The notes below the pieces were generated by a model, which ran no database searches, was not told where the DNA came from, and saw only the letters and a program-made list of their open reading frames with translations. From IMG/VR virus record IMGVR_UViG_3300023119_000004: a stretch of 64,000 nt of DNA; one strand, given 5' to 3'. The translations under genes were made by a program, and so were the position numbers. Source of the stretch: a virus. Lineage: Duplodnaviria; Caudoviricetes. Of the stretch, positions 29,639-32,535 are shown piece after piece (the first letter of the stretch is position 1; each line of letters starts with the position of its first letter).

Positions 29639-29943
29639 TCTTTTTCCACTTTGATCTGCAATGGGAATCCGTTTGCTCTGCTCAAAGTGGTTGCTTCTAC
29701 GCTTTTTTGTTCTGCAATTTCAAATGCGTAAACGCCAACTACTGCACTTCCATCTTCATGAATTTGTAGAGTTAGATTTTTTGCTGTGTCAACAGAATGC
29801 TTAAAAGTAGTTACTAGCACATCGATCACGAAATCCATTGGTGTTTGGTCATCATTAATAAAAATAACTGAGTACCTTTCGGGCTCAGCAATTTTTATCT
29901 TAATCTTTTCGTCAATTTGTACATCCATATTATTACTTATCAT
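29635..29943 (-). CDS. clpS: N-end-rule adaptor ClpS
   Basis: YSVIFINDDQTPMDFVI...QIHEDGSAVVG..FEIAEQK...GFPL; SD AGGAGA before ATG 29943. Confidence 0.92.
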   Translation of the reverse strand: MISNNMDVQIDEKIKIKIAEPERYSVIFINDDQTPMDFVIDVLVTTFKHSVDTAKNLTLQIHEDGSAVVGVYAFEIAEQKSVEATTLSRANGFPLQIKVEKE

Positions 29944-29970
29944 TGTATGATCTCCTACCAGTAAATAATG

Positions 29971-29994
29971 ATAGTGGGGATTGCTCCCCACTAC
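29971..29994 (-). terminator. Strong GCAA-tetraloop hairpin between hsp20 and clpS (weak terminator or processing site)
   Basis: GTAGTGGGGA-GCAA-TCCCCACTAT, only a short U-tract. Confidence 0.55.
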
Positions 29995-30010
29995 CGACCT
30001 TTTAAGTGTA

Positions 30011-30460
30011 TTACTTAACTTCGATTGATCTTGCTTTTTTAGCCTCTGGAATAATTCTTTCCAAAGCAATTCTAAGCAAGCCATCTTTTAGTTCAGCACC
30101 TTGTACTACTACATCGTCTGCAATAGTAAATGATTTAGTAAAGTGCCTTTTACTAATACCTCTGTATTGTACACCATCCGCTTCATCGTCAGTTTTTGAC
30201 TCTTGGATTGATTTAACAGTTACCACACCGTCTTCGTATGATACGTCAATATCCTTTTTGCCAAAACCAGCAAGTGCTAATTCAATATCGTAAGTATAGT
30301 CGCCTGTTTTTACAATATTGTATGGCGGATAGTTAGTGTTAAAAGTAGGTGCATTGAAGAAGTCGTCTTCAATCATTCTTTCGAATCTATCAAAGATAGG
30401 ATCGAACCCTACTGATACGGGTCTTAGTTGGTTAAAGATTGATAGTGATTTGTTTGTCAT
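30011..30460 (-). CDS. hsp20: Small heat-shock protein Hsp20/IbpA
   Basis: YPPYNI...ELALAGF...YRGIS.R.F.KSF...A.LKDGLL.I.L. Confidence 0.95.
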   Translation of the reverse strand: MTNKSLSIFNQLRPVSVGFDPIFDRFERMIEDDFFNAPTFNTNYPPYNIVKTGDYTYDIELALAGFGKKDIDVSYEDGVVTVKSIQESKTDDEADGVQYRGISKRHFTKSFTIADDVVVQGAELKDGLLRIALERIIPEAKKARSIEVK

Positions 30461-30530
30461 TTGTTTTCTCCTTATTAAGCAAGTTGTTTGTCATGTAAGA
30501 CCTATCAAGCATCTTACAATCTTATTTATC
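30461..30530 (-). promoter_or_regulatory. hsp20 leader: late promoter, hairpin and AACTTGCTTAATAAGGAG motif
   Basis: GATAAATA, TGTAAGA-TGCTTGATAGG-TCTTACA, AACTTGCTTAATAAGGAGAAAA. Confidence 0.7.
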
Positions 30531-32414
30531 TACCTCTTCAAACTCGGCGTCTACAACGTTTTCATCTTTCTTAGATGTTGTTTCTGCTTCTTCTGAAGTG
30601 TTAGATTCTTGTTGTGCCTTGTAAACTGCTTCACCTAACTTCATTGCCACTTGTGATAGTGCTTCTGTTTTAGATTTAATATCTTCAACATTGTCACCTT
30701 TAAGTGCTTCTTGTAAGTTAGTCTTAGCATCTTCAATTGATGTTTTAATATCTTCCGATACTTTATCACCGTGTTCTTTTAACTGTGATTCAACTGAGTG
30801 TACAAGACCGTCAGCATTGTTTCTAGCATCTACGGCTTCTCTCTTTTGTTTGTCAGCCTCTTTATTTGCTTCTGCATCTTTGACCATTTGTTCAATTTCT
30901 GCATCACTCAAACCGCCGTCTGATTTAATAGAGATTGTTTGTTCTTTGCCTGTGCCTTTATCTTTTGCTGATACGTTAACAATACCGTTTGCGTCAATAT
31001 CAAATGTTACTTCAATTTGAGGCATACCTTTTGGTGCTGGTGCAATACCTTCTAGATTAAAGAGACCAAGTTCTTTATTATCTACAGCCATTTCACGCTC
31101 ACCTTGTAATACCTTAATAGTAACTGCTGATTGATTATCTTCCGCAGTACTAAACACTTGTGATTGTTTAGTTGGGATTGTTGTATTCTTTTCAATTAGT
31201 TTAGTAGTAACACCGCCTAGTGTTTCAATACCCAATGAAAGCGGAGTAACGTCAAGTAGCAATACATCTTTAACATCACCACTTAATACACCTGCTTGAA
31301 TTGCGGCACCTAGTGCTACAACTTCATCTGGGTTAACACCTTTGTTTGGATCTTTACCAAAGAATGTTTTAACAGTTTCTTGTACCTTAGGCATACGTGT
31401 CATACCACCTACTAGTACAACGTCTGTAATATCACCTTTGCTTACACCTGCGTCTTTAAGAGCAGTTTCACAAGGTTTAATTGAACGTTGGATTAGTTCG
31501 TCTACAAGACTTTCAAACTTAGCACGAGTAATTTTTAAATTCAAGTGCTTAGGTCCAGAAGCATCTGCTGTAATAAATGGTAGACTGATGTCAGTTTGTG
31601 TTGTGCTTGACAATTCAATCTTTGTTTTTTCAGCCGCTTCACGTACACGTTGTAGTGCTAGTTTGTCTGTTGAAATATCTACACCAGACTCTTTCTTAAA
31701 CTCGTCTACAATGTATTGTGTAAGAACAGCATCAAAGTCTTCACCACCTAATGCTGTGTCACCGTTTGTTGAAAGTACTTCAAATACTCCGTCACCGAGG
31801 TCAAGTACTGATACGTCAAATGTACCACCACCTAAGTCATACACAACAATCTTGCCTGACTCTTTTTTATCTAGTCCGTAAGCAAGTGCCGCCGCTGTTG
31901 GTTCATTTACAATACGTAAAACTTCTAGTCCTGCAATTTTACCTGCATCTTTAGTTGCTTGACGTTGTGCATCGTTAAAGTATGCTGGTACTGTAATAAC
32001 TGCTTGTGTTACAGTTGAGCCTGTATACTTTTCAGCAGTTTCTTTCATCTTGGTTAATACTTCTGCTGATACTTGTTGTGGGGAAAGTTCTTTACCTTTT
32101 GTTTCTACCCACGCATCACCGTTCTTTGCTTCTACAATTTTGTATGGAAGCGTTTTAGCATCACGTGTGATTTCTTTTGATTTAAACTTACGTCCAATTA
32201 GACGCTTTGACGCATAGATTGTGTTCTCTGCGTTAGTAACTGCTTGACGCTTTGCTGATACACCTACAAGTGTACCATCGTCAGTATAGGCTACAATACT
32301 AGGTGTAGTTCTATTACCTTCTACGTTTTCAATTACTTGGGGATCTTTGCCGCTTAGTATAGCAACACATGAATTTGTGGTACCCAAATCGATACCAATA
32401 ACTTTATTAGCCAT
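30522..32414 (-). CDS. dnaK: Chaperone DnaK (Hsp70)
   Basis: [33 protein letters not shown]; start ATG 32414 after SD. Confidence 0.97.
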
Positions 32415-32485
32415 TTTTTTCTCCTTATTAAGCAAGTTTTAATTACAAAACCTATTCAGCATTTTGTAACATATAAGTATTTATC
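32415..32485 (-). promoter_or_regulatory. dnaK leader: same architecture as hsp20 leader
   Basis: GATAAATA, TTACAAAA-TGCTGAATAGG-TTTTGTAA, AACTTGCTTAATAAGGAGAAAA. Confidence 0.7.
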
Positions 32486-32535
32486 ACTTATATAGTATAT
32501 ATAGTGTTAAATCGACTATTTTTCAAGTCTAAATG

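Follow-up and report, generated by a model that had tools for sequence, protein, structure and literature searches.

The dnaK and hsp20 genes in a 64,000-nucleotide (nt) stretch of DNA from a virus of the Caudoviricetes (IMG/VR record IMGVR_UViG_3300023119_000004), hereafter the window, are each preceded by a leader that is probably a short, two-hairpin RNA thermometer of the ROSE-like type. The RNA class of these leaders is already known, and its use in a phage is new. Both leaders are read on the minus strand of the 64-kb window. The initial annotation of this region had described in each of them an GATAAATA box, stems that differ in sequence but are complementary, a near-identical loop and an identical segment containing the Shine-Dalgarno (SD) sequence, and every one of these elements was recovered; the SD of both leaders sits within the identical segment AACUUGCUUAAUAAGGAG. 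The parts of the two leaders are as follows, where R1 denotes a covariance model of the leader built in this analysis and ROSE_3 an Rfam family.

32478..32485, minus strand: GATAAATA box of the dnaK leader, a putative element resembling a T4-type late promoter
32442..32470, minus strand: hairpin 1 of the dnaK leader (predicted fold, ROSE_3 and R1 alignments, covariation)
32421..32436, minus strand: hairpin 2 of the dnaK leader, the candidate thermosensor, CUU[G]CUU-AAU-AAGGAG (sequence reading, ROSE_3 alignment, conservation)
30523..30530, minus strand: GATAAATA box of the hsp20 leader, which overlaps the final codons of dnaK and its stop codon
30494..30518, minus strand: hairpin 1 of the hsp20 leader (folding, ROSE_3 alignment, covariation)
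30468..30483, minus strand: hairpin 2 of the hsp20 leader, CUU[G]CUU-AAU-AAGGAG, with the SD AGGAG at 30472-30468 (sequence reading, ROSE_3 alignment, conservation)

Hairpin 1 of the dnaK leader comprises a 10-bp lower stem, a bulged G (32460), C:G and U:A pairs and the tetraloop GAAU, with the stem UUACAAAA/UUUUGUAA enclosing UGCUGAAUAGG. Its counterpart in the hsp20 leader consists of a 7-bp stem (UGUAAGA/UCUUACA), a U.G pair, a bulged G (30510), C:G and U:A pairs and the tetraloop UGAU, and this stem encloses UGCUUGAUAGG. The 22-nt segment AACUUGCUUAAUAAGGAGAAAA starts at 32438 in the dnaK leader, ahead of the ATG at 32414, and the identical segment of the hsp20 leader begins at 30485, with the ATG at 30460. 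Within hairpin 2 of the dnaK leader, the anti-SD sequence UUGCU pairs with the SD AGGAG (32425-32421), leaving the G at 32433 bulged and the ATG outside the hairpin. The core of the SD hairpin recurs at the apex of hairpin 1 (U.G, bulged G, C:G and U:A), and the observation that the motif occurs twice per leader is thus structurally correct. In any transcript begun at the GATAAATA box, hairpin 1 is located at the 5' end or a few nt from it. The 18-mer AACTTGCTTAATAAGGAG has exactly two sites in the 64 kb when three mismatches are permitted (0.13 expected), and model R1 of the whole leader scores 72.0 and 70.8 bits at these two sites, with the next best site in the window at 9.8 bits.

ROSE-like thermometers are defined by a U(U/C)GCU sequence which pairs imperfectly with the SD, leaving a bulged G, within a 5' untranslated region (UTR) that belongs to a heat-shock gene, typically one coding for a small heat-shock protein (PMC3669281, PMC11182007). 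Both leaders contain CUU[G]CUU together with AAGGAG, with relatives varying solely from UUGCU to UCGCU, and both form two hairpins with the SD in hairpin 2, hairpin 1 being backed by covariation and folding. They are also located directly upstream of heat-shock genes, hsp20 and dnaK, although dnaK is an atypical target. In the short ibpA thermometers of Pseudomonas, hairpin II alone senses temperature, a stable hairpin I is found at the 5' end of the mRNA and the AUG is unpaired (PMC3669281).

A permissive scan of Rfam returned a single plausible family for both leaders, the heat-shock RNA thermometer ROSE_3 (RF02523), with full-length alignments (model positions 1-69 of 69) scoring 32.3 bits (E = 3e-4) and 25.5 bits (E = 0.018). 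The ROSE_3 consensus, likewise two hairpins in shape, was matched at AUGC...GGU in hairpin 1 and at ACUyGCU...AGGAG in hairpin 2. This family is presumably linked to the short Pseudomonas ibpA thermometers of Krajewski et al. 2013. The initial annotation had proposed a new thermosensor co-regulating phage chaperones, which is right in kind, but the ROSE-like anatomy and the full-length, sub-threshold ROSE_3 match place the leaders in an RNA class that is not new. The expectation that the motif would match no known Rfam family was borne out only in part, as ROSE_3 aligned over its full length but below the cut-off.

Other regulatory elements were considered and rejected. The anti-SD sequence reads CUUGCUU rather than the UUUU of a fourU thermometer. 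The inverted repeat of the CIRCE/HrcA operator, TTAGCACTC-N9-GAGTGCTAA, is unmatched in the window with up to three mismatches, in agreement with the earlier statement that the element is not CIRCE. Hairpin 1 of the hsp20 leader was also evaluated as a terminator of dnaK; it is not followed by a T-run, and the same hairpin precedes the host ibpA gene and dnaK itself.

The leader is conserved well beyond the window. Relatives of the phage Hsp20 protein were found at 62 IMG/VR loci, 57 of which carry the leader (35 distinct leaders, Hsp20 identity 43-85%) in the order [G/T]ATAAATA, hairpin 1 with a variable stem and a conserved bulged-G top, and AACUYGCUUAA...AGGAG. The same leader occurs behind TATAAATA in the cultured Pelagibacter phage Mosig. 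The letters of the hairpin-1 loop vary (UGAU, GAAU, GAAA, GUAA and AAAA), as do the sequence and length (7-22 nt) of the linker next to the anti-SD. When 48 distinct leaders from phages and from SAR11 bacteria were aligned to R1, 97.3% of the cells were paired and nine of the ten hairpin-1 pairs showed double-sided changes, while the bulged G of hairpin 1 and the next C:G pair were invariant. The covariation score of this alignment was 0.443 versus 0.181 for shuffles, none of 500 of which reached 0.443, and at most 0.11 for slid-partner controls. In a second set, anchored on dnaK loci, 97.7% were paired and all ten hairpin-1 pairs covaried; this set mixes leaders located just upstream of dnaK with those of neighbouring hsp20 genes, and a few of its contigs also occur in the first set. 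Fitting the alignments to R1 favours the structure, but the covariation effect is real, as the slid controls and the raw sequences show. The covarying hairpin, as proposed in the initial annotation, is conserved in related phages at both hsp20 and dnaK loci. In the 48 leaders, hairpin 2 is fully paired (100%) and shows almost no variation, its single variable pair, U.G to C:G, corresponding to the U(U/C)GCU alternative. The identical 22-nt 3' segment common to both leaders might also have arisen recently, by local duplication or gene conversion, and serve no selected function. This is extremely improbable, however, as the two hairpin-1 stems differ at most positions and yet each pairs perfectly, and the same design, with compensatory changes, is repeated in SAR11 and across well over 100 viral contigs.

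A distant phage group (L040-L062), with Hsp20 proteins 43-47% identical, carries a third hairpin, conserved and in the middle (GAUGGGUA..ACCAUC), as well as AUCUUGCUUAAUAGGAG upstream of hsp20. A DNA search of a phage isolate collection gave no match to this group.

A number of results weigh against reading the leaders as thermometers. Nearest-neighbour folding reproduces hairpin 1 with its bulged G, and the mean unpaired probability of AGGAG rises gradually from 0.36-0.46 at 4-15 °C to 0.57-0.71 at 42 °C. The predicted masking of the SD is weak, however, falling mid-range among the 38 SD-bearing genes of the window (36 besides these two). Hairpin 2 in isolation has an energy of about -2.5 kcal/mol at 15 °C, one of the weakest in the family, owing to an SD that reads GGAGA here and not GGAGG. 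Its near invariance also means that it has conservation but no covariation support, and this conservation may partly reflect the SD itself. Neither ROSE_3 score reaches the gathering threshold of 43 bits, the remaining Rfam ROSE models gave no match to the leaders at E <= 10, and ROSE_3 failed to detect the SAR11 ibpA leaders at permissive thresholds. Neither of the promoter-like boxes is enriched within the window, with six observed versus 4.6 expected for GATAAATA and three versus 7.2 for TATAAATA. The temperature response of the leaders is itself a prediction drawn solely from their family resemblance. As the nearest-neighbour energy model omits non-canonical pairs known in ROSE hairpins, the folding result represents weak evidence against a thermometer rather than a refutation. 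Among the host and phage loci scanned permissively, the sole ROSE_3 match was to a relative (L002, 29.5 bits) and the SAR11 leaders gave none, so that Rfam is unusable for annotating this leader family.

Unexceptional masking of the SD relative to other genes of the window, together with a very weak hairpin 2 (AAU triloop, SD GGAGA instead of GGAGG) in which covariation is absent, would be consistent with a leader that is not temperature-responsive in the phage, where hairpin 1 would serve as a 5' mRNA stabiliser and the 3' segment as an efficient, inherited ribosome-binding region. Such a leader is unlikely in light of the anti-SD half, CUUGCU, which lies outside the SD and is nevertheless invariant, beside a variable linker, across phages whose Hsp20 proteins are 43-85% identical. 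Furthermore, it is the entire two-hairpin unit, not the SD alone, that has been placed on dnaK and groES.

A counterpart of the leader is found in the chromosomes of SAR11 bacteria. Of 121 Pelagibacterales genomes, 51 have a single R1 site each, at 23-56 bits and mostly at 37-56 bits (50 of 120 when G113, which is unpublished and from which no sequence was used, is left out). The R1-positive host genomes are recorded as Candidatus Pelagibacter or Pelagibacteraceae. At the 20 host loci that were read (L072-L091, at about position 1500 of each), the site always directly precedes the chromosomal hsp20/ibpA gene and follows a CTTGAAA-N16-CCCATATA box similar to the sigma-32 consensus. The sampled dnaK genes of SAR11 have a sigma-32-like box, and their short leader lacks the element. 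Its occurrence on dnaK, and in one contig on groES, is thus specific to the phages with respect to the sampled SAR11 dnaK genes, which lack it. A sigma-32-like promoter precedes the host ibpA leader, and a phage-type box stands in its place in the phage; the phage lineage may have acquired hsp20 along with its 5' UTR. Close hsp20 relatives among bacterial genomes were limited to two contigs of metagenome-assembled genomes (MAGs), seemingly binned phage DNA, and the host copies were found by means of R1. Contigs with phage-type hsp20 genes and leaders are present in MAG G002 (Parcubacteria; L064, L066-L071), with five R1 matches, and in MAG G001 (Alphaproteobacteria; L065, L067), and these look like phage contigs binned into bacterial MAGs.

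The initial annotation had also raised the possibility of a translational operator bound by a phage or host protein. In the form considered here, a protein, such as a phage RegA-like repressor, Csp, phage bS21 or another factor, would bind UGCY...RGG in both hairpins and co-repress dnaK and hsp20. The bulged-G core does occur twice per leader, and the apex G and C:G pair, invariant in the 48 leaders and also present in the hairpin-1 consensus of ROSE_3 (AUGC...GGU), exceed what a stabilising stem would need. A putative translational repressor gene is likewise found nearby in the related phage Mosig. The same leader, however, precedes ibpA in SAR11 chromosomes, in one copy per genome and where phage proteins are absent, and a phage-specific binder is therefore not required; the proposal of an operator bound by a phage protein was not upheld. 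In addition, the loop letters change freely, and the positions that do not vary are the ones forming the bulged-G helices. Elements with the same architecture have been shown to function without protein (PMC3669281), and no candidate binder was identified. Protein-mediated repression through this leader is accordingly considered quite unlikely.

The distribution of the element among phage genes is consistent with the co-regulation of chaperones through ROSE-like leaders. Approximately 34 of 80 phage dnaK loci have an R1 match immediately upstream of dnaK, and many phage dnaK loci have a second match on a neighbouring hsp20 gene, in either gene order. One subgroup of phage dnaK genes has a sigma-70-like promoter alone, without a thermometer. 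An exact 19-mer scan of viral contigs retrieved at least 120 contigs, in which the downstream gene is hsp20 in 107, dnaK in three and groES in one; the remaining contigs have truncated open reading frames (ORFs) or code for two small proteins. The groES gene (L372:2763-3053, plus strand; Pfam Cpn10, E = 1e-32) lies behind the same hairpin 1 and the leader AACUUGCUUAACAAAGGAG, which adds a third chaperone gene to the phage thermometer set. As hsp20, dnaK or groES lies downstream in most of the 19-mer contigs, the element is chaperone-specific. Proteins of 70 and 75 amino acids (L066:1564-1773 and L315:2644-2868, both plus strand), without a Pfam family, are encoded behind a late-promoter-like box and a ROSE-like leader and could represent further temperature-controlled phage genes.

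T4-type late promoters consist of a TATAAATA-like -10 element a few nt upstream of the transcript start. Of the 35 distinct phage hsp20 leaders, 33 carry a conserved [G/T/A]ATAAATA sequence 4 to about 12 nt 5' of hairpin 1; the host (SAR11) leaders lack this sequence. For the late promoter named in the initial annotation, the position of the box is conserved in relatives, but neither GATAAATA nor TATAAATA is enriched in the window; GATAAATA is thus a putative late promoter on the basis of positional conservation, not of enrichment. Upstream of the dnaK GATAAATA box, CTTGAAA-N17-TATATA is present (window positions 32486-32530, minus strand), and relatives show a clearer TTGAYW-N17-TATAAT. This is possibly an early promoter of the sigma-70-like type, in which case the chaperone genes would have two promoters; a consensus scan of the window made no call at CTTGAAA-N17-TATATA. 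In a related contig of the distant group, about 10 nt separate the end of a tRNA gene (L040:2804-2876, plus strand; 70 bits) from the TATAAATA box of the downstream hsp20 leader.

The coding sequences (CDSs) behind the two leaders and the 3' end of the locus are as follows.

30522..32414, minus strand: CDS of the phage dnaK (Hsp70), 630 amino acids (translation)
30011..30460, minus strand: CDS of the phage hsp20 (IbpA-type small heat-shock protein), 149 amino acids (translation)
29970..29995, minus strand: terminator-like, GC-rich hairpin just 3' of the hsp20 stop codon (consensus scan: 11 pairs, 6 G-C)

The phage DnaK shares 72-73% identity with SAR11 DnaK and up to 83% with the DnaK proteins of uncultured phage contigs. 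The hsp20 product matches Pfam HSP20 (E = 8.7e-16) and is 55-57% identical to SAR11 IbpA. The hairpin at 29970..29995, the tail of which is just moderately T-rich, is likely the 3' end of the dnaK-hsp20 unit. The flanking genes include those for ClpS, heme oxygenase, a halogenase, bilin reductase and 2-oxoglutarate (2OG) oxygenases (Pfam). The long ORF for ClpS (30084-29635) overlaps hsp20 by 74 nt and includes the terminator-like hairpin. The Pfam ClpS match begins at residue 67, and an ATG preceded by an SD occurs at 29943, which suggests that this ATG is probably the true start of ClpS. In a related viral contig, hsp20 is closely followed by a glutamine riboswitch (RF01739), detected at L027:3500-3550 (plus strand; 67.3 bits, above the cut-off).

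The phage leaders resemble the ROSE-like ibpA elements of Pseudomonas in their two hairpins, the imperfect pairing of U(U/C)GCU with the SD around a bulged G and the unpaired AUG, as well as in a stable hairpin I, likewise bearing a bulged G, at the 5' end and an ibpA/hsp20 gene downstream; in bacteria, these elements lie behind a sigma-32 promoter (PMC3669281). Unlike the Pseudomonas type, the phage element is AT-rich, has a much weaker SD hairpin and lacks the flanking G-C clamp pairs, which are important in the Pseudomonas ibpA thermometers (PMC3669281). It is also sub-threshold for ROSE_3, has a phage-type box in place of the sigma-32 promoter and occurs on dnaK as well. With the SAR11 ibpA leader, the phage copy shares the same two hairpins, the invariant AACUUGCUUAA...AGGAG and the bulged-G apex of hairpin 1. 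The SAR11 copy differs in its CTTGAAA-N16-CCCATATA box, a 4-6-nt loop, an SD that is usually GGAGG and its restriction to ibpA, whereas the phage copy is located behind [G/T]ATAAATA and also on dnaK. Classical ROSE elements (Bradyrhizobium ROSE1 and E. coli ibpA) have the same SD/anti-SD core and regulate the same class of genes (PMC3669281), but contain three to four hairpins and longer thermosensing stems.

The phage RNA thermometers counted in a 2024 paper are those of lambda cIII, SPbeta blyA and one gut-phage fourU (PMC11182007). Like the putative thermometers described here, lambda cIII, the SPbeta blyA fourU and the gut-phage sigma-70 fourU are cis-acting temperature sensors on phage genes (PMC11182007, PMC10586365), and the gut-phage sigma-70 fourU is likewise common to phage and host. 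These elements are, however, of the switch or fourU type, and lambda and SPbeta are temperate, whereas the present leaders are ROSE-like and are found on chaperone genes of T4-like marine phages. Literature searches covering phages, cyanophages, pelagimyophages and Pelagibacter, although not exhaustive, found no prior description of ROSE-like thermometers in phages or SAR11.

A mechanism may be proposed by analogy with ROSE-like elements already characterised. In the cold, 30S binding would be limited by the weak 3' hairpin, and warming would melt this hairpin and allow more translation of the phage DnaK and Hsp20. Hairpin 1 would aid folding and/or shield the 5' end of the mRNA. A phage that moves transcription to its own promoters would not be able to use the sigma-32 heat-shock control of its host, and a cis-acting RNA would keep its chaperone output responsive to temperature. 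In a broader scheme, which is offered tentatively and is somewhat less than evenly favoured, T4-like marine phages may run a sigma-32-independent heat-shock regulon, in which the SAR11 ibpA thermometer has been set behind phage promoters and copied to dnaK, and in some to groES, such that the chaperone supply tracks temperature via a cis-acting RNA. More than a stabiliser, the invariant bulged-G apex of hairpin 1 would form a second functional module in this regulon, for example by nucleating folding, by binding a factor or by acting as a standby or decoy SD site.

Very few phage RNA thermometers have been reported so far and none of these is ROSE-like (PMC11182007). Here, a putative ROSE-like thermometer is kept on host-derived chaperone genes in more than 100 contigs of uncultured marine phages and in phage Mosig. 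A host gene and the regulator in its 5' UTR appear to have entered the phage lineage together, with a change of promoter, and the regulator has apparently moved onto dnaK and groES, genes which the host controls by transcription. This would provide a testable link between ocean temperature and the protein-folding capacity of phages. It also points to a putative, unannotated thermometer, missed by current Rfam models, in SAR11, which are among the most abundant bacteria known.

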